Source: Dehalococcoidia bacterium (GTDB lineage: Bacteria > Chloroflexota > Dehalococcoidia > SM23-28-2 > RBG-16-64-32). From it: a stretch of DNA of 64,000 nucleotides. Below are positions 33,133 to 64,000 of the stretch, piece after piece. Position numbers and translations under genes: made by a program. Within the stretch, counting starts at the first letter, position 1; the number at the start of each line of letters is the position of its first letter. The notes below the pieces were generated by a model. The model was given only the letters and a program-made list of their open reading frames with translations, did not search any database and was not told where the DNA came from. The stretch lies in assembly GCA_040877915.1 (NCBI GenBank), contig JBBDNA010000008.1:37846-101845 (forward strand), written 5' to 3'.

Positions 33133-34104
33133 CTAGCGGCGCGCCCGCCGCAGCCACACTCCGCCGGCGCCCATCGCCATCAGGCCGGCGACCATCATCG
33201 CCAGCCAGGGGAAGCCGGACTGGCCTGGCGGCGAGCCCGTGTCCGGCAGCTGGGAGGGCGCCGCCGCCGCGGGCGTGGCTGTTGGCGTGGCCGTCGCCGT
33301 CGGCTCGGGAGTGGCGGTCGGCGCGGCGGTGGGCTCCGGCGTGGGCGTGGGTGTAGGCGTGGGCTGGCCCACGACACCGGCCACATCGTGGCAGAGGTTG
33401 TCGAAGCCGACGCCGCCGTCGTCCGAATTCTGGACGGAGATGCCGGCGATGTCGTTTGCGCCGCCGGCGCGCTGGAACCCGTAGCTCTGATCGCTCAGTC
33501 CAGACAGGACGATGGAGTCGATCAGCGTACCGTCGCGCGCGAAGAAGTCCACCGTGGCATCGCCAGCGCCGCCGCCGACGAGGTCGAAGCCGAACTCCGA
33601 CTGGTCGAAGTCGAATAGGACGGCGAAGGCGCCTTCACCGACTGCTTCGAAATTGGGGAAGCCAGCGGGGCCAAGGCCGGCGAGGACCTGGCTGGGACCG
33701 TTGACGAACACGTTCAGGTTCTGGTTGGCCGCGCCCAGTTGCAGGGACAGCGGGTCGCTGGGCGTCCCGGATAGGACGTCGAAGTCGCCGTTCGCGGACA
33801 ACGTTTGCCCGGCGAACCGCTCGGCGAAGTCGGCGCCGTCGGACTCGAAGACGGCGTCGTAGTTGGTTCCCGGTGCGGCGCCGCCGGCCACGTCGTCAAA
33901 CGTGATATTGCCGTCGCAGACCAGCGTGGAAGGGTCAACCTGGGATATGGGTCCGTTCCCTGCCTCCGCGCGCTGCGGAACGGGAAACCCCGTCGCGGCC
34001 GCGATCGCCAGGACCGCCGCTGCCAGCGCCGTCACCACAGCAACGACTGTCAGCGTCCGCGTCAGACCTCCCGCGAGGCCCGCGCTTCGGTTGCGTTGGA
34101 TCAT
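33133..34104 (-). CDS. secreted LPDTG-anchored surface protein, unknown passenger domain
   Basis: 323 aa with an AAGGGGG RBS, an N-terminal signal/TM and a P/T/A-rich linker. C-terminus [39 protein letters not shown]. Confidence 0.7.
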   Translation of the reverse strand: MIQRNRSAGLAGGLTRTLTVVAVVTALAAAVLAIAAATGFPVPQRAEAGNGPISQVDPSTLVCDGNITFDDVAGGAAPGTNYDAVFESDGADFAERFAGQTLSANGDFDVLSGTPSDPLSLQLGAANQNLNVFVNGPSQVLAGLGPAGFPNFEAVGEGAFAVLFDFDQSEFGFDLVGGGAGDATVDFFARDGTLIDSIVLSGLSDQSYGFQRAGGANDIAGISVQNSDDGGVGFDNLCHDVAGVVGQPTPTPTPTPEPTAAPTATPEPTATATPTATPAAAAPSQLPDTGSPPGQSGFPWLAMMVAGLMAMGAGGVWLRRARR

Positions 34105-34136
34105 CGAATCCCCCTTCGAACGACGCGCTGCGCCAT

Positions 34137-35186
34137 CTATAGTCCGTTTTGACGCCGGGCGTGGCGCAGCCAGAGGGCGCCAATCGCCATCGCGGCGAGA
34201 CCGGCCGCAGCGGTCGCGAGCCAGGGGAAGCCGGACCCGCCCCCGGGCGCGGCGCCGGTGTCCGGGAGCTGCGCCGGGGCGGCCGTGGGCGTGGCCGTGG
34301 GCGTGGCGGTGGGCGCCGCGGTCGGGGCCGCCGTGGGCTCCGCCGTGGGTGTTGGTGTGGGCTCCGGCAGGCCGGTGGTGTAGAGGACGGCCAAGTTGTC
34401 GCTCAGCGTTTCGCCGTCGCCGCCCCAGTGGTAGCCAAGGCCTACGGTGTCGTCGCTGTTTATGCCGCTGGTAGCGGTGCCGCCAAAGTTCTCCTCGTCC
34501 AGGTCCTCGCCCGTGTCGTCGTTGAACTCGGTGTCCTGGTACTGAACCTTGATGTCGTTGCTGGTCTCGTAGAGGATCGTCTCGAAGGTCACGCCCTCGC
34601 CGGCCACGCAGTTGTCGCAGTCGTTGTGGCAGACGTCGTCGAACTGGACGACGAACGTGCGGTCCGGCGCCGAGCCGAAGGTCTGGTAGTAAACGTCACC
34701 GCATTCGCCTGGGTCCAGGTCGTCGAACCAGGGGGCGATGAGAGGGTTGCCGCCCCAGCCGCTGACGTCGTCGCAGTCCGTATCCGTATGGGGTATCGGG
34801 TTGCCTGACTCGTCGACAAGAGTGTCGTCCCAGTTGTAATTGTCGTTGCAGTCGTTGTCGATATCGAAGCTCAGGAAGCCGTTGGAGGAGATGTCCATCT
34901 CCGTGTAGTCGGTGCCGAAGAAGTTGAACGTGAAGGGGAGGGTGACGGTCTCCCAGTCGTCGTCTTCGTCCTCAACGTCGGAGAGCGTGCCGCCGGTGGC
35001 GTCCACCCACTCGAAGGTGGTTGTCGGATCGGGGGCGTTGCTGTCGATCCAGACGTACCCGGAAGCGTTCTCGCCGCTGGTGTCGGCGCTGGCACCGCCG
35101 AGGCCGCCGAAAGCGCCGATGATCGCTATCGCGGCGACTACGCAAGCGATTCCCAACCAGATGCGGACGTTCAACGCACGTGTCAT
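34137..35186 (-). CDS. secreted LPDTG-anchored surface protein (paralog of 35329-36375)
   Basis: 349 aa from ATG 35186 with an AAGGAGAG RBS and a signal peptide. LPFTFNFFGTDYTEMDISSNGFLSF is a NIDO-like motif. The passenger is acidic and Cys-containing, followed by a PT linker and QLPDTGAAPGGGSGFPWL + TM + RHARR. Confidence 0.7.
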   Translation of the reverse strand: MTRALNVRIWLGIACVVAAIAIIGAFGGLGGASADTSGENASGYVWIDSNAPDPTTTFEWVDATGGTLSDVEDEDDDWETVTLPFTFNFFGTDYTEMDISSNGFLSFDIDNDCNDNYNWDDTLVDESGNPIPHTDTDCDDVSGWGGNPLIAPWFDDLDPGECGDVYYQTFGSAPDRTFVVQFDDVCHNDCDNCVAGEGVTFETILYETSNDIKVQYQDTEFNDDTGEDLDEENFGGTATSGINSDDTVGLGYHWGGDGETLSDNLAVLYTTGLPEPTPTPTAEPTAAPTAAPTATPTATPTAAPAQLPDTGAAPGGGSGFPWLATAAAGLAAMAIGALWLRHARRQNGL

Positions 35187-35328
35187 TTGTGCTCTCCTTA
35201 TGCTAAGAGCGTACTCGCCATAGCTATTCCAAACGCCTACTCTAACCCAGCGGGCGTGAGGGGTCAATACGAAAGGTTACGGATTACGGTTGCAGAGGCC
35301 CGGTACCAGGCCGGCCCCTCCGGGTTGT

Positions 35329-36375
35329 TCAACGGACGCCAAGCGTCCGAGCGGCTATCCAGATACCGCCTCCGCCCAAGACTACCAGACCGCCCGCGAC
35401 CACCACAAGCCAGGGAAGGCCGGACTCGCCCGGGCCGGCGCCCGTGTTCGGGAGCTGAATGGCCGCGGCGACCGCCGTGGGCCCCGGCGTGAGGGAGAGC
35501 GCCTGGCCGCCGGTGGGCGTCGGTGACGGCGAGGGCGTCGGCGACGGCGAGGGCGCGGGAGCCGGTGTTGGCGTAGGGTCCGTCGCCCCCGTCGTGTACA
35601 GGACGGCGAGTCCGTCCACCAGAGGAGGCTCGCCGGCCCACGAGTAGCCCAGCCCGACGGCGCCGTCCTGGCTTATGCCGGTCGTGGCCGTGCCGCCGAA
35701 GTTCTCCTCCTGCAGGTCATCGAAGGTGTCGCCTTCGAAGAGAGTGTCCTGGTACTGGACTTTGATGTCGTTAGTCGTTTCGTACAGGATCGTCTCGAAG
35801 GTTATCCCCTGGCTCACAGCGCAGTGCCCGAAGCAATCGTCGTGGCAGACGTTGTCGAACTGGACGACGAAGGTCCGGTCCGGGGACGAGCCGAACGTCT
35901 CGTAGTAGACGTCGCCGCACTCGGCCGGGTCCAGGTCATCGAACCAGGAGGCGATGAGGGGGTTGTTGCCCCAGCCGCTTGTAACCGCGCAGTCCGCATC
36001 CGTGTAGGGAATCGGATTTCCCAGGTCGTTGCCGATGGAGTCGTCCCAGTTGTAGTTATCGTTGCATTCGTCGGGGTCGTCGAGGTCGAAGCTGATGATG
36101 CCGTTGGTGCCGATGTCGACCTGGGTGTACTCCGTTCCGAAGAAGCTGAACGCGAACGGCAGGTCTACCGCATCGGCGCAGTCGTCGCAGTCAGTGCCGG
36201 GAATGGCCGTGCCATCAGTCGCGTCCAACCACTGGAAAGCAACGGCCGGGGCCGGGGCGTTGCTGTCGACCCAGACGTAGCCGGAAGCGTTGTCGCCGCT
36301 CGTATCGGCGTTAACGTGGCCGGAAGCGCCCACCACAACCGCGGCCGCGAGGACGGCAGCCACCGCCAACCCCAT
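35329..36375 (-). CDS. secreted LPNTG-anchored surface protein (paralog of 34137-35186)
   Basis: 348 aa from ATG 36375. LPFAFSFFGTEYTQVDIGTNGIISF, a PSPSPTP linker, and QLPNTGAGPGESGLPWL + TM. The ancestral start position appears to be an ATC codon at 36403-36405 (see findings). Confidence 0.7.
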   Translation of the reverse strand: MGLAVAAVLAAAVVVGASGHVNADTSGDNASGYVWVDSNAPAPAVAFQWLDATDGTAIPGTDCDDCADAVDLPFAFSFFGTEYTQVDIGTNGIISFDLDDPDECNDNYNWDDSIGNDLGNPIPYTDADCAVTSGWGNNPLIASWFDDLDPAECGDVYYETFGSSPDRTFVVQFDNVCHDDCFGHCAVSQGITFETILYETTNDIKVQYQDTLFEGDTFDDLQEENFGGTATTGISQDGAVGLGYSWAGEPPLVDGLAVLYTTGATDPTPTPAPAPSPSPTPSPSPTPTGGQALSLTPGPTAVAAAIQLPNTGAGPGESGLPWLVVVAGGLVVLGGGGIWIAARTLGVR

Positions 36376-36519
36376 GCGGATACGGGCGACTGGAGTGCGT
36401 GTGATGCGGGCCCCCTTATGCTGGTGTGGCGCTTTGACGCCATGCCACTGACGCGCTTTAGCTCGTAGAAATCTACAGGAATGCAGCGGTTCGCGTCAAC
36501 GCGACCGATTACGGGCGGC

Positions 36520-54403: not shown

Positions 54404-55186
54404 GTGACCGCGTCTCTAGTCCTCACCGAGGTCCGCGACCGCGCTCTCGTCGTCACGATCAACCGGCCGGAGGCGCGCAACGCCGTCAACGGCGAGACGG
54501 CCGGCCTGCTGTTCGAGGCCGTCGACCGCTTCCGCTCGGACGACGCACTGGACACGATGATCGTGACCGGCGCCGGCGAGGTCGCCTTCTGCGCCGGCGC
54601 CGACCTCAAGAACAGCGGCAGCCTGATGCAGCGAGAGGGCGCGCAGGAGTCCGGCCCCATGGGGTTCACCCGCGTCACGGACGCCGGCAAACCCGCCATC
54701 GCCGCCATCAACGGCTACTGCCTGGCCGGCGGCCTGGAGGTCGCCTGCTGGTGCGACTTCCGCATCGCCGACGAGTCCGCCCGCTTCGGCGTCCTCAACC
54801 GCCGCTGGGGCGTGCCCCTGGTGGACGGGGGCACGCAGCGGCTGCCGCGCATCGTTGGGCTGGGGAACGCGCTCTACCTCATAGAGACCGGCGCCATGCT
54901 CGACGCTCAGCAGGCCCTCCGCATAGGCCTCGTCCAGGAGGTCGTGCCCAGGGGCAAGGCCCTGGAACGCGCCCTGGAGCTCGCCGCTGCCATTTCGAGT
55001 TACCCCCAGGTCAGCCTCCGCGGCGACCGCCGCGCCGCCCTCGAAGGTCACCCGCTGCCCATCGACGAGGCGCTCGACCTGGAGCGTCGCATCCACGAGG
55101 CGAGCCTGGGCGACCCGGCCATGGCCGAAGGCCTGCGCCGCTTCGCCTCCGGCGACCGTCCGCCGCCGCCCACACCACCCGCGTAA
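54404..55186 (+). CDS. enoyl-CoA hydratase/isomerase family protein
   Basis: 260 aa. VTINRPEARNAVN, TGAGEVAFCAGADL, and AAINGYCLAGGLEVACWCDFR. Confidence 0.9.
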   Translation: MTASLVLTEVRDRALVVTINRPEARNAVNGETAGLLFEAVDRFRSDDALDTMIVTGAGEVAFCAGADLKNSGSLMQREGAQESGPMGFTRVTDAGKPAIAAINGYCLAGGLEVACWCDFRIADESARFGVLNRRWGVPLVDGGTQRLPRIVGLGNALYLIETGAMLDAQQALRIGLVQEVVPRGKALERALELAAAISSYPQVSLRGDRRAALEGHPLPIDEALDLERRIHEASLGDPAMAEGLRRFASGDRPPPPTPPA

Positions 55187-55202
55187 CCCGTCTAGCAAAC
55201 CG

Positions 55203-55232
55203 TTGACACTGGTGCACAATTGGTGCCATAGT
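55203..55232 (+). promoter_or_regulatory. cassette promoter copy 1
   Basis: TTGACA (55203-55208), an 18-nt spacer ending in TGc, then CATAGT (55227-55232). It is part of a ~90-bp block conserved upstream of four consecutive genes. Confidence 0.5.
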
Positions 55233-55269
55233 GACCGAAGCTCACGAATTCTGAACAGGAGAAAACCAG

Positions 55270-56541
55270 ATGTCTACGCGCAATCGCAGGATCCTCCTAG
55301 CCGGTGGCGCCCTCGCAGTCGTGGCGCTGACCGTCACGCTTCTGGCCGGAGGTCGCGAAACCTCAGCCGGCGTGGCCGCCGGCCCGCTGGCCTACATCTC
55401 CAACACCAGCTCCGACGATGTATGGGTCGTCGATCTCGACGCCCAGGCGGTGGTCGACGTCGTGCCCGTGGGCGATGACCCTCGCGGCATCGACATCGCG
55501 CCCGATAACAGCAACGTCTACGTGGCCAACCGCTTCGACGACACGGTGTCGGTCATCGATACGACCACGAACACGGTCGCCGACACGATCGACCTGGGGG
55601 CGAGCGTTCTCGTTACCGCCACTGAGCCGTATGACGTGGTTGTCAGCCCCGACAACGCGTTCCTGTACATCGCAATGAAAAACGGCGGCAGCGAGAACGG
55701 CGATGGCACCGTCGCCGTGGCCGAGCTGCCCTCCGGCGACGTAATAGCAGAAGAGATACTGGACAGCGCCGCTTCTCCGGAGGGGATAGTCGTCACGCCG
55801 GACGGTAACAAGGTCTACGTCGCCGCTCGCGGCGCCATGTACGTAGTTGACGTCTCCGACCCCGCGAACCCCTCCTTCACCGGCACCAGCGGCGTCGCCG
55901 AGCGTGAACTCGTCGTCTCGCCGGACGGCGAATGGGTCTACGCCGACAACAACGCCGTGCGCACGAGCGACGATACCGCCTTCGCCACCGGCGACTCCTC
56001 CGGAGAGCGAGGCATCGCCATCTCGCCGGACGGCCTACAGCTGTTCAGCACTGATGAGACCGACGACGTGTGGGTGGTTGACGTGACGCCCGGCGATCCA
56101 CCCACCACCGCCTTCCTCCAGGACATCCAGGACGTTACGCAGAGCGAGTCCTACGGCGTAGACCTGACGGACGAAGGCGACCGCGGCCTCGTTTCCTTCC
56201 GCGGCAGCAATACCGTCCGTATATTCGACGTGGCGACGTTGAGCTTCATCGGACCCGTGATCGACATGCAGTTCGACCCGGGCACGGGCACCATCTTCGG
56301 CAGCGAGCCCAAGCAGCTCGTCATCTCCCACACGATTCAGCCCACGCCGACGCCCACTCCCACGCCCGAGCCCGGGGCGGCCACGCCCACGGCCACACCC
56401 ACGGCCGCCGCCCCGGCGGAGCTGCCCGACACCGGTGGCACGCCCGGCCCTGATAGCGGCCTACCCTGGCTTGCCATCCTCGCCGCGGTCGGCGCGGCGG
56501 CCGTCGCCGGCGGCGCCATTATCGCCGCGCGCCGCCGCTAG
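55270..56541 (+). CDS. YVTN-type beta-propeller repeat surface protein with LPDTG anchor
   Basis: 423 aa with a signal/TM N-terminus. Repeated ...VYVANRFDDTVSVIDTTTN... propeller blades, a PTPTPTP linker, and [40 protein letters not shown]. Confidence 0.8.
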   Translation: MSTRNRRILLAGGALAVVALTVTLLAGGRETSAGVAAGPLAYISNTSSDDVWVVDLDAQAVVDVVPVGDDPRGIDIAPDNSNVYVANRFDDTVSVIDTTTNTVADTIDLGASVLVTATEPYDVVVSPDNAFLYIAMKNGGSENGDGTVAVAELPSGDVIAEEILDSAASPEGIVVTPDGNKVYVAARGAMYVVDVSDPANPSFTGTSGVAERELVVSPDGEWVYADNNAVRTSDDTAFATGDSSGERGIAISPDGLQLFSTDETDDVWVVDVTPGDPPTTAFLQDIQDVTQSESYGVDLTDEGDRGLVSFRGSNTVRIFDVATLSFIGPVIDMQFDPGTGTIFGSEPKQLVISHTIQPTPTPTPTPEPGAATPTATPTAAAPAELPDTGGTPGPDSGLPWLAILAAVGAAAVAGGAIIAARRR

Positions 56542-56560
56542 CCCGAACAGCGAACCGACA

Positions 56561-56594
56561 AGGGGCCGCCCCGGTGGCCATCGGGGCGGCCCCT
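56561..56594 (+). terminator. GC-rich hairpin after cassette gene 1
   Basis: ggggccgccccg-gtggccat-cggggcggcccc is a perfect 12-bp stem. There is no clear U-tract. Confidence 0.5.
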
Positions 56595-56618
56595 TCGCAT
56601 AACCCGTCCAGCAAACCG

Positions 56619-56648
56619 TTGACACTGGTGCACAATTGGTGCCATAGT
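56619..56648 (+). promoter_or_regulatory. cassette promoter copy 2
   Basis: TTGACA (56619-56624), an 18-nt spacer, then CATAGT (56643-56648). The sequence is identical to copy 1 across the -35 to -10 region. Confidence 0.5.
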
Positions 56649-56685
56649 GACCGAAGCTCACCAATACTCAGCAGGAGCACTAACG

Positions 56686-58530
56686 ATGTCCATCCCCCTA
56701 CGCGTGTCCCTCGTATTCAGCGGCATCCTCGCCCTGGCGGCCGTAATCGTCAGCGCCGGCGCCTGGCTCGCCTCGCCGGCGCAAGCGGCGACGTTCACGG
56801 TGACGAACACGGACGATTCCGGCGACGGCTCCCTCCGCCAGGCGATCGAGGACGCTAACGCAGCCGCGGGAGCGGACACGATAGACTTCAGCGTGACCGG
56901 CACCATCACCCTCGCCTCCACCCTGCCGGACATCCTCGACCCGCTCACGATCGACGCCAGCGGAGGCGGTGTGGTGCTCGACGGGGCCGGCGTCGCCGGC
57001 CCTGGCCTGGCCGTGTTCGACAACTTCGCCCAGTTTACCGTCCTCGGCCTCACCATCCAGAACATGGACGGCCGTGGCATCGCTATCGCCGCCTGTGAGA
57101 TAGACGCCACGATCGACGGCGTCACCGTCCAGGACGTAACTGATCGCGGCGTAAATATCGACGTCGTCACCGAGATCACCAAGTGCGACAGCAGCCTGGA
57201 CGAGGCGAACCAGGTCATCATCCTCAACAGCAGCATCTCCGGCGCCTCCGACGGCATCGACATCGACTTCTGCGTAAACATCGGAGACTGCACGCTTAAC
57301 GGCTCCATCAACGTCGACATCTCCGCCAACTCACTGATCGAATCCACCACCGACGGCGACGGCATCGACCTGCGGATCTGCCACAGCTCAGACCTCTGCG
57401 ACCTCGCCGGTCCCATCGACATCACCGTCGGCGGTGACGGCCCCATCACCGGCACTAGCAACGACGGCGTCGACTTGCGGGTCTGCGACAGCGGCGGCTT
57501 CTGCGACGTGGCCGCTCTTACCATGGACGTTAGCGACAACCACGGAGATATCACCAGCGACGTGGACCCGGCCGTCCACCTGGAGGTCTGCACGGGATCA
57601 TGGGTCGATGGCTGCGTCGCCAACGCCGCGCTCTCCGTCCGTAACAACACCGGCGCGATCACCGGCGCCGACAACGAGGGAATCCTGGCGTTAATCGAGA
57701 CGAGCGACGGGACACACTCTATCGACATCACCGGGAACTCGGCCATCGTCAACAACGGGTCGGACGGCGTCCAGGTCTGCTGCGACTCGGCCGCCACTAC
57801 CATCAGCGGCAACGCCATCATGGATAACGGCACGGATGGCGTCGACCTCGCGGGTACGGGGGAGACCGTTACCGGCAACATCATCTGCGGCAACGGGGAG
57901 AGCGGGGTCAACGAGGACTCCGACGCCAACGCGCCGTTCGATGTCACCGGCAACTGGTGGGGCGACCCCACCGGTCCGACCCACCCCGAGAACGCAGGCG
58001 GCGCCGGCGACGCCCTTGAAGACGCGGCCAGCGGCGGCTCCGGCGACGGCGATTTCGACCCCTGGATAGACACTATCACCGCCAGCGCCGACCCGGCCGC
58101 CCTCAACGTCCCCTCCGCTGTAGCCTTCCAGTTCGCCAGCGCCGACGGCACAACCTTCCTCGGCGAAGGCGCCGGCCCCTTCGAGATCACCACCGACAAC
58201 GGCGCCGTCAGCCCCAGCCCGGCCTTCATCAACGGCCCGGACGGCACCCTGGAGGTCACGCTTACCCCGGACGAGGTCGGCACCGCCACCGTCACCGCCA
58301 CCGGTCCCTGCGGCCTGGACGATACTCTCGGCGGCAACACGATCACCCTGGACGTCGCCGCCGCCCCGGTCGGCCCCACCCCCACCTCGACTCCGGCCGC
58401 CCCCAGCGAGCTGCCGGACACCGGCGCTCCACCCGCCTCCCAGAGCGGCGTTCCCTGGCTCGCCCTCCTCGCTGCGATAGGCGCGGCGGCCGTCGCCGGC
58501 GGCGCAATCGTCGCCATGCGGAGACGCTAA
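56686..58530 (+). CDS. right-handed parallel beta-helix repeat surface protein with LPDTG anchor
   Basis: 614 aa from ATG 56686 with an AGGAG RBS. Signal peptide ...ASPAQA|[17 protein letters not shown] motif. Many (N/D)xGxDGI beta-helix turns. [40 protein letters not shown]. Confidence 0.8.
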
Positions 58531-58552
58531 CCGCAAACAAGAACCGCTCACA

Positions 58553-58583
58553 GGGGGCCGCTCCGATGCATCGGGCGGCCCCC
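58553..58583 (+). terminator. GC-rich hairpin after cassette gene 2
   Basis: gggggccgc(t)ccgatg / catcgggcggccccc forms a 15-bp stem with one bulged T. Confidence 0.5.
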
Positions 58584-58608
58584 TTCGCGTAACCCATCCA
58601 ACATCCCG

Positions 58609-58637
58609 TTGACACTCCCCGCCACCCGTGCCATAGT
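58609..58637 (+). promoter_or_regulatory. cassette promoter copy 3
   Basis: TTGACA (58609-58614), a 17-nt spacer, then CATAGT (58632-58637). Confidence 0.5.
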
Positions 58638-58674
58638 GGCCGAAGCTCACCAATACTCAGCAGGAGCACTAACG

Positions 58675-60207
58675 ATGTCCATCCTCAAGCGCGTGTCCCT
58701 CGTATCCGGCGGTATCCTGGCCCTGGCGGCCGTAATCGCCAGCGCCGGTGTCTGGCTCGCCGCGCCGGCGCAGGCCGCAACCTTCACCGTCACCAAGACG
58801 GCCGACACCGCCGACGGGACCTGCGACGCCGACTGCTCACTGCGGGAGGCGATCATCGCCGCCAACGCCAACGCGGAGGCCGACATCATCAACGTCCCGG
58901 CGGGTACCTACGTGCTCACCAGCGGGGAGCTGGAGATAACCTCCGACATCACTATCAACGGCGCTGGCGCTTCCTCCACCGTCGTGGACGGCAATGGCTC
59001 TAGCCGCGTGTTCCATATATCTGATACGGGTGCGACCGTCGTCATCAACGACCTGACGGCCCAGAACGGCGACGCGGCGAACGGCGGCGGTATCGAGAAC
59101 GACGGGATTCTCAGCCTCACTTCGGTAGCCGTCAGTGGCAACAGCGGTGGCGGGATCAACAACACCGGGACGCTCTCCCTGGCAGACAGCACAGTGGACA
59201 ACAACAGTGGGTCCAGTGGAGCCGGGATTAACCTGACCGGCGGCGGGCCCGGCAACGGGACGCTGACGGTCTCTAACAGCTCGATTAGCGACAACACGGC
59301 TACGGGCTCATCCGGCGGTATTCACAACACAGGCGCCGGCAACCCGGTCACGATCGTAGACAGCACCGTGCGTGGCAATACGGCCACCACCGGAAGCGGC
59401 GGCGGCATAACCCACACGAGCAACGGCACGTTGGAAATCTCCGGAAGCACGTTTAGCGGCAACGAGGCGGGAAGCATCGGCGGCGCCATCTACCACACCG
59501 CCTCAGGATCAGGCGCCATAACGATCGTCAACAGCACCGTGAGTGGCAATTCAGCAGCCGACAACGGCGGCGGCATCTATTGCACGAGCGGCGCGGGCCT
59601 GGACCTCGGCAACGTCACGCTCAGCGATAACTCCGCGACCAGCGGCGGCGGCATCTACATCACCTGCTCTGACGTCACTCTCACCAACACCATGGTTGTG
59701 AACTCCGCCTCCGGCGGCGACTGCGACAACGGCACACCCACCTCACTGGGACACAACATCGACTCCGACGGCAGCTGTGGCTTCGCCGCGACCGGCGACC
59801 AGCCCGGCGTGGACCCTCTACTCGATCCCCTGGCCCTCAACGCCCCCGGCTCCACCCAGACCCACGCCCTGCTGGCCGGCAGCCCCGCAATTGACACCGC
59901 TGACGACACCGCCTGCCCCGCCAGCGACCAGCGCGGGGTGGCCCGCCCCCAGGACGGGGACGATGACGGCACCGCCATCTGTGACGTAGGCGCGTTCGAG
60001 CTGGAGCCGGCGGTGCCCACACCGACGCCGACGCCACAACCGGCGGGCCAGACGCCGACGGTCACAGCTACCGCCACGCCGGCGGAGCTCCCCGACACCG
60101 GCTCTCCGCCCGCGGCCGATAGCGGCGTCCCCTGGCTCGCCCTCCTCGCCGCGATAGGCGCGGCGGCCGTCGCCGGCGGCGCCCTCATCGCCACGGGCCG
60201 CCGCTAG
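58675..60207 (+). CDS. beta-helix (polymorphic-membrane-protein-repeat / choice-of-anchor-Q-like) surface protein with LPDTG anchor
   Basis: 510 aa from ATG 58675. Signal ...AAPAQA|[18 protein letters not shown]. Repeated GGGI.N.G.L...S.(V/I)S.N turns. C-terminal [43 protein letters not shown] + TM + GRR. Confidence 0.8.
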
Positions 60208-60223
60208 CCCGAACGACGCAACG

Positions 60224-60255
60224 AAAGGGGCCGTGCCGCGAGGCGCGGCCCTTTT
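60224..60255 (+). terminator. intrinsic-terminator-like hairpin after cassette gene 3
   Basis: aaaggggccgtgcc-gcga-ggcgcggcccTTTT is a stem of about 14 bp including two G-U pairs, with a T4 tail. Confidence 0.55.
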
Positions 60256-60278
60256 CGCGTAACCCGTCCACCATCCCG

Positions 60279-60307
60279 TTGACACCTGCAATCGCTCATG
60301 CAATATT
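60279..60307 (+). promoter_or_regulatory. cassette promoter copy 4 (diverged)
   Basis: TTGACA (60279-60284), a 17-nt spacer ending in TGc, then AATATT (60302-60307). Confidence 0.45.
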
Positions 60308-60341
60308 GGCCCAAGCTACGTATTCTGAATAGGAGCACATC

Positions 60342-61898
60342 ATGCCCATCCACCTGCGAATCATGACGGTGTCCGCCGGCATCCTGGCCGTGGCGGTCCT
60401 CACGGCCTTTGCGGGCCTCCGGCTGGCCACGCCCGCACACGCCGCCGACATCGCCGTCAACACCACCGACGACGAAAACAACGTCGACGGCGACTGCTCT
60501 CTCCGCGAAGCAGTGGAGGCCGCCAACACGGACGCCGCCGTGGACGCCTGCACCGCCGGCGCCGGCGCGGACACCATCGCAGTTCCTGCTGGCACCTACC
60601 TACTGGAGACCGGCGAGCTGGAGATCACGACAGACGTCACGATCAACGGGGCCGGCGCCGCGGACACGATCGTCGACAACGCCGACGACACCGGTCGCGT
60701 GTTCAACGTCAACGAATCGGCGGCCACCGTTGTGATCAACGACCTCACAGTCCAGAACGGCCAATCGGGTGACGGCGGCGGCATCTGGACCAGCGGCACG
60801 CTAACTATCAACAACGTCGTCGTCCAGGACAGCTTCGCGGACGGAGACGGCGGCGGCATCTTCATCAGCGGCAGCGGCACGCTGAACGCGACCAACTGCC
60901 AGGTCATCAACAACGAGGCCGCGGATGAAGGCGGCGGCATCATGAACGAGGGTCCGGATACCCTCAACCTGAACGGCTGCCTGGTATCCGGAAACCACGC
61001 CAGCGACGACGGCGGCGGCATTGCCAACGTCTTCGACGCTACCGGAACGATCGACGGCAGCACGATCTCCGGCAACACCGCCGACAGCGACGGCGGCGGT
61101 ATCTACATCGACCAGTGCTGCGGCGTTGAACCTTTCGTCATCACCAACAGCACGATCAGCGGGAACACCAGCACCGGCGATGACGGCGGCGGCGTGAATG
61201 TGGAGGATGGTGAGGCGACAGTCACCAATGTGACGATCAGCGGCAACAGCGCAGCGGACACAGGGGGTGGCTTTCGGGTCGATGATGGCGCCTCGGCAGC
61301 ACTAACCAATGTGACGATCACAGGAAACTCGGCGGCACCCGACGGCGGCGGTGGAGTGGCGGCCATGGACGAGGGCGCGGCGACCCTGCTGAACACTATC
61401 GTCGCGGAGAACCCGGACGGCGACGATTGCGCGATCCTCGGCACGCTCACCTCCAGCGGCCACAACCTCTCGTCAGATGACTCCTGCGGCTTCACCGGGA
61501 CCGGTGACCAGATCAACACCGACCCGCTGCTCGAGGCGCTGGCCCTTAACGCCCCCGGCTCCACCCAGACCCACGCCCTCACCGCCGATAGCCCTGCCGT
61601 GGACACCGGCGACGACGCCGGCTGCCCCGCTACAGACCAGCGCGGCGTGACCCGCCCGCAGGACGGGGACGACGACGGTACCGCCGTCTGCGACGTCGGC
61701 GCGTACGAGCTTGAGGGGGCGGCGCCCACTCCAACGGCGGTTCCCATCGCCGCTACTCCCACCGCAGCCCCGGCCGAGCTGCCCGACACCGGCGGCACGC
61801 CCGCCTCCGACAGCAGCGTCCCCTGGCTCGGCCTCCTGGCGGCGATAGGCGCGGCGGCCGTCACCGGCGGCGCGCTCGCCGCCACGCGCCGCCGCTAG
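60342..61898 (+). CDS. beta-helix (choice-of-anchor-Q-like) surface protein with LPDTG anchor
   Basis: 518 aa. Signal ...ATPAHA|ADIAV. CSLREAVEAANTD. GGGI repeats. [65 protein letters not shown]. Confidence 0.8.
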   Translation: MPIHLRIMTVSAGILAVAVLTAFAGLRLATPAHAADIAVNTTDDENNVDGDCSLREAVEAANTDAAVDACTAGAGADTIAVPAGTYLLETGELEITTDVTINGAGAADTIVDNADDTGRVFNVNESAATVVINDLTVQNGQSGDGGGIWTSGTLTINNVVVQDSFADGDGGGIFISGSGTLNATNCQVINNEAADEGGGIMNEGPDTLNLNGCLVSGNHASDDGGGIANVFDATGTIDGSTISGNTADSDGGGIYIDQCCGVEPFVITNSTISGNTSTGDDGGGVNVEDGEATVTNVTISGNSAADTGGGFRVDDGASAALTNVTITGNSAAPDGGGGVAAMDEGAATLLNTIVAENPDGDDCAILGTLTSSGHNLSSDDSCGFTGTGDQINTDPLLEALALNAPGSTQTHALTADSPAVDTGDDAGCPATDQRGVTRPQDGDDDGTAVCDVGAYELEGAAPTPTAVPIAATPTAAPAELPDTGGTPASDSSVPWLGLLAAIGAAAVTGGALAATRRR

Positions 61899-61917
61899 CC
61901 CGAACCGCGAACCGCGC

Positions 61918-61949
61918 GGGGCCGCCCCGATGGCCATCGGGGCGGCCCC
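61918..61949 (+). terminator. GC-rich hairpin after cassette gene 4
   Basis: ggggccgccccg-atggccat-cggggcggcccc has the same stem as 56562-56593 and is followed by the T-rich tcttccttttcc. Confidence 0.55.
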
Positions 61950-62035
61950 TCTTCCTTTTCCGCCACCAAGGCCGTAACGTCCAGCGCTCTTCCCCGTTCT
62001 ACTGGTTGCCCCGCGTTACCCAAGGAGGGTTGTCT

Positions 62036-64000
62036 ATGACAGGCAATCTCGCCCGCTGGCTCCGCTGGACGCTCATAGCGACGGCCGCGCTCCTCCTGTT
62101 CGCGACCCAGGAACCGGCATCGCCCGTCCTCGCTACCGCCTTCACTGTCGACAGCACCGCCGACGCCGTCGACGCCAACCCCGGCGACGGCCTCTGCGAC
62201 GACGGCGCCGGCGCCTGCACGCTCCGCGCCGCTGTCCAGGAGACGAACGCCCTTCCCGGCGCCGACGCCATATCCCTGCCCGCCGGATCCTACACGCTCG
62301 CCATCCCCGGAACCGGCGAGGACGCCTCCGCCACCGGCGACCTCGACATCACGGACGACCTCACGCTCACCGGCGCCGGCGCAGACGCCACGATCATCGA
62401 CGGGGCAGGCCAGCACCGCGCGTTCCACATCGTCAACGCCGCAACGGTGCACATCGGCGATCTCGGCATCGTCAACGGATACGCAGGAGACGCCGACGGT
62501 CACGGTGGCGGCGTCTACAATCAGAGCGGCGACACCACCCTCACCGACGCGACCATCTCCGATAGCGAGGCGCCAGCCGGAGGTCTATCTGAGGGCGGCG
62601 GCGGCTTCGCCAACGCCGCCTCCGCCCAACTAAACAGGGTCAGAATTCACGACAACGAGGGATTCTTCGGCGGCGGCGTTCAAAACGAGCTCAGCGGCAC
62701 GCTGGATGTCCTCGACAGCGCTATCTATCGGAACCACTCCACCGACCGGGGCGGCGGCTTCGCCAACCACGGTGGCGTGATGACCATCAACTCCAGTTCG
62801 ATCTATGACAACACGGCAAGCGATGGAAGGCCGTCCGGCTTCAACGATGGCCCGCTTGAGATCGTTAACACCACGATCACCGGTAACTCTAGCGACTTCG
62901 GGGAAGGAGATGGGTTCGATACCGACGTTGCCGTCATCAGCTCTACCATCGCCGGCAACAATGCACCGGTCATGCACGTCATCGGCAGTTCGGTCGTAAA
63001 CTCAATCGTCGCAGAGAGCGATTGCCCTGAAGTCAACTCGCTCGGCCATAACATCTATGTCGCTTTCAGTTCGTCCTGCGTTCCCTCGCATCCAACGGAC
63101 GTGGTCGTGGACGATCCGCTCCTCCACCGCGTCGAGGGCGCGGACGGCCGCCTCACCCTCCAACCGTTCGCCGGCAGCCCCGCAATCGATGCCGGAGACG
63201 ACTCCGCCTGTCCGCCCGTCGATCAGCTAGCGCTCCCCAGACCCCGAGACGGTAACGGTGACGGCGTCGCGGTGTGCGACATCGGCGCCGTCGAGGTGCA
63301 AGAACCGGTGCTGGCCCCCACACCTGGGATCCCACCAGCCACTCCGGTCTGGGGCCAGCCTTTCCCGCTCAACACCAATGCTCAATCTGATACAGCTCAG
63401 GACAGCGCTCCTCAGATGGATACCGATGGCAAGGGAAACTGGATCGCCGTGTGCGTATCTGACGCCAACGTCCTCGCCTCGCGCTCAAGCGATAACGAAG
63501 ACATTTGGAGCGACCCTGTCTTGGTATCTCCCTCCGGATCGATAGCTGCCTCGGTGGTCACGGACGGCTCCGGAGTCTGGATCGCCGCATGGGATTCAAC
63601 GCTTGGCGCAGCTGGCAATTTGGGCGACGACACGGACATCTTCTTTGCGCGCTCGACAGACAACGGCGCTCACTGGTCGAAGCCCGAGCTTCTTAACGCC
63701 GACGCATCCACCGATACGGGACTAGAGGGCCTTGAGCTCACAGTGGGCCTCAGCGCGGTAGACGGCACCTGGGTAGCCGTCTGGTCCCGCTTTCAGAAGG
63801 GTTCGTTCATCGCTCGCTCGGCCGACGGTGAGACTTGGTCGGACCCGATTTCGTTAGGCATCGGAGGAGTGCTTGCTGGCCCTGCCGCGACCGACGGGCA
63901 AGGGAACTGGATGGTCGTTTGGGACGACACCGGCCTCAATGCGGGCGATGACTCCGAGGTGGTCTTCTCTGTCTCGAGCGATGATGGCGCTAGCTGGTCC
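62036..64000 (+). CDS. secreted beta-helix (CTLRAAV/choice-of-anchor-Q-like) + BNR/sialidase-like repeat protein, 3' end outside the window
   Basis: Open for 655 codons to the window edge, so it is absent from the ORF track. AAGGAGGG RBS and a signal-like N-terminus. GACTLRAAVQETNA. DQLALPRPRDGNGDGVAVCDIGAVE. BNR motifs STDNGAHW, SADGETW and SSDDGASW follow. Confidence 0.75.
   Translation, partial: MTGNLARWLRWTLIATAALLLFATQEPASPVLATAFTVDSTADAVDANPGDGLCDDGAGACTLRAAVQETNALPGADAISLPAGSYTLAIPGTGEDASATGDLDITDDLTLTGAGADATIIDGAGQHRAFHIVNAATVHIGDLGIVNGYAGDADGHGGGVYNQSGDTTLTDATISDSEAPAGGLSEGGGGFANAASAQLNRVRIHDNEGFFGGGVQNELSGTLDVLDSAIYRNHSTDRGGGFANHGGVMTINSSSIYDNTASDGRPSGFNDGPLEIVNTTITGNSSDFGEGDGFDTDVAVISSTIAGNNAPVMHVIGSSVVNSIVAESDCPEVNSLGHNIYVAFSSSCVPSHPTDVVVDDPLLHRVEGADGRLTLQPFAGSPAIDAGDDSACPPVDQLALPRPRDGNGDGVAVCDIGAVEVQEPVLAPTPGIPPATPVWGQPFPLNTNAQSDTAQDSAPQMDTDGKGNWIAVCVSDANVLASRSSDNEDIWSDPVLVSPSGSIAASVVTDGSGVWIAAWDSTLGAAGNLGDDTDIFFARSTDNGAHWSKPELLNADASTDTGLEGLELTVGLSAVDGTWVAVWSRFQKGSFIARSADGETWSDPISLGIGGVLAGPAATDGQGNWMVVWDDTGLNAGDDSEVVFSVSSDDGASWS

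Follow-up and report, generated by a model that had tools for sequence, protein, structure and literature searches.

Shared ends and divergent passengers in a tandem array of LPXTG-type surface-protein genes from a Dehalococcoidia-like bacterium

Why should neighbouring genes that differ so completely in their middles be so alike at both ends? The question is raised by a 64,000-nucleotide (nt) stretch of Dehalococcoidia DNA (contig JBBDNA010000008.1, here C8; the whole stretch is called the window), in which four head-to-tail units follow a crotonase gene and span positions 55180-61955. Each unit is built in the same order: a box comes first, next a near-consensus promoter and a ribosome-binding site, then a putative signal peptide and a passenger that varies between units, and last an ELPDTG sorting signal, a tail and a GC hairpin. 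We call these units u1 to u4 and their genes g1 to g4; a fifth unit (u5, with gene g5) lies on another contig of the genome, C16, and a sixth gene (g6) runs beyond the window to the end of C8. The source genome is a 2.14-Mb metagenome-assembled genome (MAG), 71.5% complete and 68% GC. We consider it likely that paralogous genes for sortase-anchored surface proteins stand here in tandem, each transcribed separately, and that their ends have been homogenised by gene conversion.

Mosaic ends and diverged middles

An earlier note on this DNA had read the four units as cassettes with conserved ends and swapped middles. Identity along the units is indeed strongly non-uniform: all-against-all blastn aligns only the ends, at 75-93%, and the middles do not align as DNA. 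The two ends also disagree about which units are closest. At the 5′ end the closest pair is u1 and u2, which are 89-93% identical and have an identical spacer, while at the 3′ end it is u1 and u4, which are 85% identical and have the same hairpin stems. Several tracts are shared exactly: 52 nt between u1 and u2 across the promoter, again including the spacer; 45 nt between u2 and u3 across the leader and the first codons; and at least 55 nt between g3 and g6 in the anchor. Because the 5′ module of unit 2 shares exact tracts with both u1 and u3, it is itself a chimera of u1-like and u3-like sequence.

Codon choice separates the ends from the middles in the same way. We compared the share of identical codons, among aligned codons for the same amino acid, with the share expected from codon usage. 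The excess is largest in the anchors (z 2.9-4.7 over all 10 pairs) and in the signal peptides of g2, g3 and g5 (z 2.6-3.6), smaller in the choice-of-anchor Q (choice-Q) domain (z 1.3-2.1), and lacking in the beta-helix middles of the passengers (z -1.9 to 0.8). The ratio of observed to expected identical codons is 1.76 within the array, 1.08 between the array and eight other LPxTG-type tails of the same genome, and 0.92 among those eight tails. Synonymous change has reached saturation in the passengers, and the anchors show less of it than expected.

Related arrays and competing explanations

For g1, g2 and g4 a protein search recovered orthologs, with identities of 62-86%. The 86% ortholog of g1 lies on a 36-kb metagenome contig of the Joint Genome Institute (JGI), here L095, whose gene order is syntenic with ours: GH114, two CoA-transferases, luciferase-like, NmrA, DinB, cupin, crotonase, the array and SDR. 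Its array has two units, rA followed by rB, both with box and promoter, and the propeller gene that comes first here (g1) comes last there (rB). Between the g1 and rB passengers identity is 85% at the nucleotide level and 90% at the protein level, and between g4 and rA protein identity is 80% across residues 115-440. The linker and anchor of g1 and rB, however, share 68% nucleotide identity, compared with 78-90% for paralogous anchors within this genome. An anchor tree splits by genome with support of 100/99, and the approximately unbiased (AU) test rejects the orthologous pairings of u1 with rB (p 0.003) and of u4 with rA (p 0.001). Passengers track orthology while anchors cluster by genome; as far as these comparisons reach, this is concerted evolution by gene conversion.

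The content and order of the array differ in each related contig that could be read, a comparison that the earlier note had called for. The unit rA is a chimera that resembles g2 most at residues 30-45, g3 at residues 45-105 (83-90% identity) and g4 at residues 105-440 (77-97% identity). On contig L107, from a third genome, the g4 ortholog is full-length, 77% identical along its whole length, and stands after the tail of a g2-like gene, a hairpin, a box and a promoter; the mosaic in rA therefore arose on the L095 side. Such a chimera is consistent with unequal crossing-over that collapsed adjacent members. On contig L108, other LPxTG genes are followed by a full-length g4 ortholog (72%) directly before the SDR gene, here without a box. 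L107 and L108 are fragments and have different neighbours.

The propeller gene has a history of its own. It encodes an LPxTG protein in every relative examined (the g1 orthologs are P0002-P0014), and in distant relatives the ortholog, with its own LPxTG tail, stands alone at unrelated loci. That g1 began as a passenger dropped into a fixed cassette is the less likely origin, given that its orthologs at other loci come with LPxTG tails of their own. Upstream of one stand-alone ortholog, 69% identical (contig L096, 9880-10000), the sequence GCGCGTAACGCTAGACGTAACAACAAATCGTTTGACG bears a loose likeness to the box and the -35 element and runs across the preceding gene's stop codon; the likeness may reflect distant kinship with the block or be accidental.

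These comparisons suggest the following mechanism. The array would have grown by tandem duplication of whole units, and an already anchored propeller gene would have been recruited into it, its ends then being converted. Conversion tracts of tens of nucleotides repeatedly copy 5′ and 3′ modules between members, and such short tracts maintain the likeness of the ends inside each genome even as the passengers reach saturation. The homologous ends also permit unequal crossing-over, by which members are added, deleted, reordered or fused; the corresponding turnover and fusion are seen across the related contigs.

Could the ends instead have been kept alike without any conversion? Old duplicates might have had their ends preserved by purifying selection alone, acting on promoter elements, a regulator site, signal-peptide function and a sorting signal that co-evolves with the lineage's sortase, while the passengers drifted. 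The columns that never vary in eight copies of the block are precisely those of the box, the -35 element, the extended -10 element and the ribosome-binding site, whereas the spacer varies; all LPxTG tails of the genome fit a loose LPDTG..G.PW pattern; and the anchors of two further relatives, L098 and L004, are likewise alike within each genome. Selection on function does not readily account for a synonymous codon excess found in the array only (1.76 against 1.08 with the other tails), nor for the sharing of the non-coding tail after the stop codon and of the spacer between the -35 and -10 elements of u1 and u2. It would also have to accommodate exact tracts of 45 to at least 55 nt with differing partners, and paralogous anchors that are closer than orthologous ones, with the orthologous pairing rejected by the AU test. 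We judge purifying selection alone to be improbable. Stitching of similar genes from several strains or loci through their repeats, during assembly or binning, is barely credible. Repeats did break the MAG contig, which ends inside an anchor, and the k=31 unitigs. Yet exact repeats inside C8 are no longer than 52 nt (the tract at the contig end, shared by g3 and g6, is at least 55 nt), the unitigs carry junction-specific sequence, including one that spans g1, its hairpin and the next box (55216-56639), and their depth is alike (~75-85). The independent metagenome contig L095 and also L107 repeat the layout of gene, tail, hairpin, box, promoter and gene, and the flanking genes are syntenic with L095.

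The earlier note had gone further and proposed a system for diversifying surface display. In its programmed form, as phase or antigenic variation, one member or a changing subset would be expressed and the ends would drive frequent exchange; the modular architecture, the chimeric rA and an array content that differs in every related genome examined all suit it. All six frames are open as assembled, however, and g1 to g4 and the C16 gene have an intact promoter block and ribosome-binding site, so that silent copies are absent: every unit has its own promoter except that of g6, whose block is decayed. The promoter blocks and 5′ ends, as read and with no dedicated repeat scan run, showed no homopolymer or short-repeat tract of the kind that slips; no invertible segment was seen, again with no dedicated inverted-repeat scan run, and the hairpins are terminator-like. 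No recombinase is present among the identified flanking genes (crotonase on the left, the syntenic flanks of L095, and SDR beyond u5). The contigs of the single run show one arrangement at uniform depth (~75-85), with no well-supported alternative joints, and the ends are only 75-90% alike, which implies that exchange is slow on an evolutionary timescale. Programmed variation is thus very unlikely. The note's broader reading, duplication with passenger exchange or conversion of the ends, divides in two: the tracts, the codons and the AU test bear out converted ends, and no evidence was found for dedicated passenger swapping.

Several points weigh against a conversion-homogenised, separately transcribed array and should be kept in view. 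The codon test has only 40 codons per pair and the anchor tree only 157 columns; the comparative sample is small, with only two other genomes carrying the box; and part of the similarity of the ends could reflect functional constraint, such as sortase recognition or promoter elements. Promoter use, terminator function and co-expression are read from consensus matches, and three of the four hairpins have no good U-tract. Structural matches for the g2 fold are weak. The join between C8 and C16 rests on synteny and a common repeat and is unspanned by sequence, and further members may be missing because the MAG is 71.5% complete.

A bolder extension of the conversion reading, which we hold only tentatively, is that the box is an activator operator travelling with every cassette, so that box, promoter and leader at one end, with sorting signal and terminator at the other, would serve as standard plug-in arms kept uniform by conversion, and the array as a platform for acquiring and shuffling surface modules in Dehalococcoidia-like bacteria. 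If this were true, any passenger caught between the arms, the propeller gene for example, would at once join a co-regulated, highly expressed, wall-anchored display set.

The units, their proteins and the extent of the family

Most of the elements that the earlier note had described at the 5′ ends hold up. A nucleotide alignment places the same block upstream of the start codons at 55270, 56686, 58675 and 60342 (all array features are on the plus strand). Each unit opens with CGCGTAACCCGTCCAGCAAACCG or a near variant, and then come TTGACA, a spacer of 17-18 nt, TGnCATAGT (TGcAATATT in unit 4), and a leader of ~35 nt with AGGAG before the ATG. The 12-nt box (GTARCCCRTCYA) lies ~9 nt upstream of the -35 element, at about -56 to -45. 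In unit 1 the box and promoter occupy 55180-55232, with the box core GTAACCCGTCTA at 55183-55194, TTGACA at 55203, an 18-nt spacer and TGcCATAGT ending at 55232; the stop codon of the crotonase gene (TAA, 55184-55186) falls inside this box, as the note had said. The box and promoter of unit 2 occupy 56596-56648. From the -35 to the -10 element copies 1 and 2 do not differ, and this part lies inside the 52-nt exact run, with 56610-56661 identical to unit 1 and 56651-56695 identical to unit 3. Unit 3 (58586-58637) and unit 4 (60256-60307, TTGACA and TGcAATATT) have 17-nt spacers, and copy 4 is the most diverged.

The promoter calls rest on matches to a sigma-70-type consensus. The four promoters score 10/12 and have the extended -10 TG as well, while shuffles of the region give 0.6 such sites. 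The pattern TTGACA-N14/15-TGnNATANT occurs six times in the 2.14-Mb assembly, and five of the six sites are array promoters; the sixth is at C6:186961 (+). Their share among the best consensus matches suggests high, coordinated expression, so that the array members are probably co-expressed at a high level and the encoded proteins are probable major components of the surface. In the eight block copies, which come from three genomes, the columns without variation are the box core, CGTTGACA, TGnnATAnT, GGAG and ATG, and the spacer between -35 and -10 varies freely. A box conserved in 8/8 copies beside a freely varying spacer fits a functional site, and the box is probably the candidate site of a shared transcription factor.

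A genome-wide search with an nhmmer profile of the block, of the kind that the earlier note had suggested, matched only these four copies and one on contig C16. A DNA search of 40 relatives of the same family or order gave only short chance matches to the block. Exact-pattern scans of metagenome collections gave three matches, all chance and with no gene start downstream; those of genome collections also gave three, in unrelated phyla. The starts at 56686 and 58675 are backed by an aligned AGGAG-N7-8-ATG and by orthologs, and the longer GTG and TTG frames of a mechanical listing, which have no such support, were set aside. A conserved RNA structure in the leader was rejected (RNAalifold -1.3 kcal/mol, no covariation), and Rfam matched no RNA family between 54 and 64 kb at E values up to 1.

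At the 3′ ends the linker and anchor are common to all four units, as noted earlier, with the anchors 78-86% identical in nucleotides and up to 90% when the C16 unit is included. The open frames of g1 to g4 and the C16 gene end in ELPDTG[GAS]..SG[VL]PWL..AAxGAAAVxGGA..RRR*, which is partly visible in g6 too. Motif, hydrophobic segment and positive C-terminal tail together make an LPXTG-type sorting signal. The tail reported as conserved after each gene, TAGCCCGAAC..GAACCG, is present in u1 and u4; in u3 it departs from this sequence beyond TAGCCCGAAC, and in u2 it has diverged further. A strong GC hairpin does follow each gene, with folds of -33 to -38 kcal/mol and z-scores of -3.5 to -5, and the two hairpins with identical stems are those of u1 and u4. 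In unit 1 the stop codon, tail (TAGCCCGAACAGCGAACCG) and type-A hairpin occupy 56539-56595 (-38.5 kcal/mol, z -4.5); in unit 2 the stop codon, diverged tail and type-A hairpin occupy 58528-58585 (-32.8 kcal/mol, z -4.8); and in unit 3 the stop codon, tail and a type-B hairpin, which also flanks the C16 unit, occupy 60205-60255 (-35.3 kcal/mol, z -5.0). Unit 4 closes at 61896-61955 with stop codon, tail, a type-A hairpin (61918-61949) and then a U-tract, with no intact box downstream. This U-tract is the only convincing one; the other hairpins end in CCUUCGC or CUUUUCGC. A genome-wide comparison finds the hairpin in the array only, and this occurrence rules out a genome-wide repeat of the repetitive extragenic palindromic (REP) type.

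The passengers differ as the note had it: a YVTN propeller, a beta-helix, and two beta-helices of the CSLREA/choice-of-anchor Q kind. The first gene, g1 (55270-56541, 423 amino acids), has a putative signal peptide of its own, a YVTN/lactonase-type beta-propeller, a Pro/Thr linker and an ELPDTG signal at 56419-56538. Next, g2 (56686-58530, 614 amino acids) combines the common signal peptide with a beta-helix, an Ig-like domain and an ELPDTG anchor at 58408-58527. Its N-terminus is CSLREA-like but lacks the Cys, and in an AlphaFold2 model (predicted local distance difference test, pLDDT, 75) residues 35-420 form a right-handed beta-helix and residues 463-558 an Ig-like domain. Matches in the PDB are to generic beta-helices (tailspike, depolymerase, epimerase) and Ig-like domains, all with E above 0.001, and an exact look-up of the g2 sequence returned no record. 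In g3 (58675-60207, 510 amino acids) the common signal peptide is followed by CSLREA, a PMP-type beta-helix, choice-of-anchor Q and an ELPDTG anchor at 60085-60204; it matches NCBIfam NF041518 at E 2.8e-21 and TIGR04214 at E 1.6e-10. The fourth gene, g4 (60342-61898, 518 amino acids), has a diverged signal peptide, CSLREA, a beta-helix, choice-of-anchor Q and an ELPDTG anchor at 61776-61895. The curated cut-offs of TIGR04214 and NF041518 are passed by g3, g4 and g6, and the C16 gene shows both motifs by alignment; g1 and g2 fall below the cut-offs of these hidden Markov models and are thus not members. The signal peptide said to be common to genes 2 to 4 is close in g2 and g3, and in the C16 gene, but in g4 it is 50-56% identical to theirs. 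In g2 to g4 and the C16 gene the sequence itself shows a basic start, then a hydrophobic core, then an AxA site (PAQA|A, PAHA|A); g1 likewise has a basic start and a hydrophobic core, with no AxA site noted.

The genome encodes three PF04203 sortases above the cut-off, closest to class F yet below the NCBIfam class cut-off, together with four transpeptidase-domain proteins (penicillin-binding proteins), several Mur ligases and about 15 LPxTG-type tails. This equipment makes sortase anchoring to peptidoglycan plausible, and the array members are probably attached to the wall by class-F-like sortases. With them the cell would display an assortment of surface modules for binding or for acting on glycans. 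Named relatives of the array proteins are from Dehalococcoidia MAGs, and the window sequence is present in one DNA run, a sediment metagenome; no RNA run with the window sequence was found. The bacterium itself is uncultured, comes from sediment, makes peptidoglycan and is Dehalococcoidia-like.

The family is larger than the four members first claimed; it has at least six. At the very end of contig C16, the nhmmer block profile found u5, which encodes a 657-residue CSLREA/choice-Q protein with the common signal peptide, anchor, tail and hairpin, and another hairpin lies upstream of it at the edge of C16. The sixth gene, g6 (62036-64000 in the window, at least 845 amino acids), continues to the contig end and has its own signal peptide, CSLREA, choice-of-anchor Q, BNR/sialidase-like repeats and a SELPDTG...PWL anchor. 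C8 ends inside this anchor, its last 55 nt being identical to the g3 anchor (60085-60139), and the unitigs of the source run branch there, inside the anchor repeat. At 61970-62035, upstream of g6, stands a decayed remnant of the block, GTAAC--GTCCAGC...CCGTTCTAC, from which TTGACA has been lost. The open frame of g6, with its own ribosome-binding site and only a decayed block, suggests a former cassette that has lost its promoter; its transcription may now come from read-through or from a weak promoter. C8 and C16 appear to be neighbours because the SDR gene follows u5 on C16 and follows the array in L095; the order would then be ECH, g1, g2, g3, g4, g6, a gap, g5 and SDR.

The left boundary of the array is the crotonase (enoyl-CoA hydratase) gene at 54404-55186 (+; Pfam ECH_1, E 5.5e-43), which keeps the same position in L095. 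Elsewhere in the window, at 33133-36417 on the minus strand, three other genes encode LPDTG/LPNTG surface proteins whose tails have G.PWL; these tails show no excess of codons in common with the array anchors and form a separate family. A further CSLREA/choice-Q paralog lies outside the array (G000 C4:48464-49858), 42-47% identical to g3 and g4, and was matched neither by the block profile nor by the signal-peptide and anchor queries.

Arrays of this type also occur in other genomes. In L004 and L098, tandem CSLREA LPxTG genes each have their own hairpin and TTGAC promoter, and their tails are alike within each genome. The L004 array (MAG LejiaF_67_20, JBBEBM010000035.1, 2557-11187) is an independent one of the same type, with five tandem CSLREA/choice-Q LPxTG genes, of which the middle three have in common a block of ~500 nt, 72-86% identical, that encodes the Ig-like domain and anchor; the propeller ortholog of LejiaF_67_20 is on another contig (L099). 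On a Dehalococcoidia chromosome (L058, OY762959.1, 7315-12118), homologous beta-helix genes end not in LPxTG but in repeated dockerin-like modules (WGDVDCGG.V.PIDSLKLLRFDAG), so the same passenger family uses another attachment module there.

Comparison with known surface-protein families

The envelope biology of Dehalococcoidia-like hosts is almost unstudied, and the array offers its promoter, signal peptide and ELPDTG tail as parts for genetic work in Chloroflexota, with the box as a concrete candidate regulatory site. It is also a case in which such repeats break MAG assemblies and hide members of a family.

The mrp-emm-enn cluster of Streptococcus pyogenes is a close likeness. Its genes are each transcribed from a promoter of their own, with the activator Mga binding immediately upstream of the -35 element. 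The cluster, which belongs to the Mga regulon, consists of tandem LPXTG genes whose leader and anchor ends are conserved while the exposed parts vary, and its members recombine with one another (PMC6952200; PMC9993116), and fusion of the neighbouring emm and enn genes has been described (PMC6321872). The array described here likewise has tandem LPXTG genes, conserved ends and variable middles, and rA is comparable to the emm-enn fusion. The differences are that the streptococcal proteins are coiled coils of a pathogen, whereas the passengers here are beta-helices and a propeller in an environmental Chloroflexota-type host; that the array is larger, with at least six members; and that the box is only a candidate regulator site.

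Homogenised ends are also familiar from paralogs such as babA/babB, sabA/sabB and homA/homB of Helicobacter pylori and the internalin clusters of Listeria, whose ends are homogenised by conversion while their middles differ, and which show chimeras and copy-number changes between strains. Our array resembles these genes in its converted ends, differing middles, chimeras and changes in copy number. The H. pylori genes, however, are dispersed and encode outer-membrane proteins, some of them phase-variable through repeat tracts, whereas the members here are tandem and sortase-anchored, and the putative promoter and terminator belong to the homogenised modules. The vlp, vsp and vsa clusters of Mycoplasma have a conserved 5′ non-coding region, promoter and signal peptide joined to divergent surface parts, and their switching relies on poly-A tracts in promoters or on site-specific inversion, elements of a kind not seen here in the blocks as read.

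At the level of single proteins, g3, g4, g6 and the C16 gene belong to the CSLREA/choice-of-anchor Q family (TIGR04214, NF041518), and g3 and g4 have beta-helix repeats of the Chlamydia Pmp type (PF02415). In the CSLREA family one passenger type carries different C-terminal sorting signals in each lineage, and among the relatives the C-terminal ends are LPxTG, dockerin-like, IPTL-CTERM or S-layer-homology; the family definition is silent on tandem arrays, common promoters and concerted evolution. Homogenised ends in surface-protein paralogs are a known pattern, and what is new here is the lineage, in which a clean quantitative case of concerted evolution of promoter and sorting-signal modules lies outside the pathogens where such cases have mostly been described.

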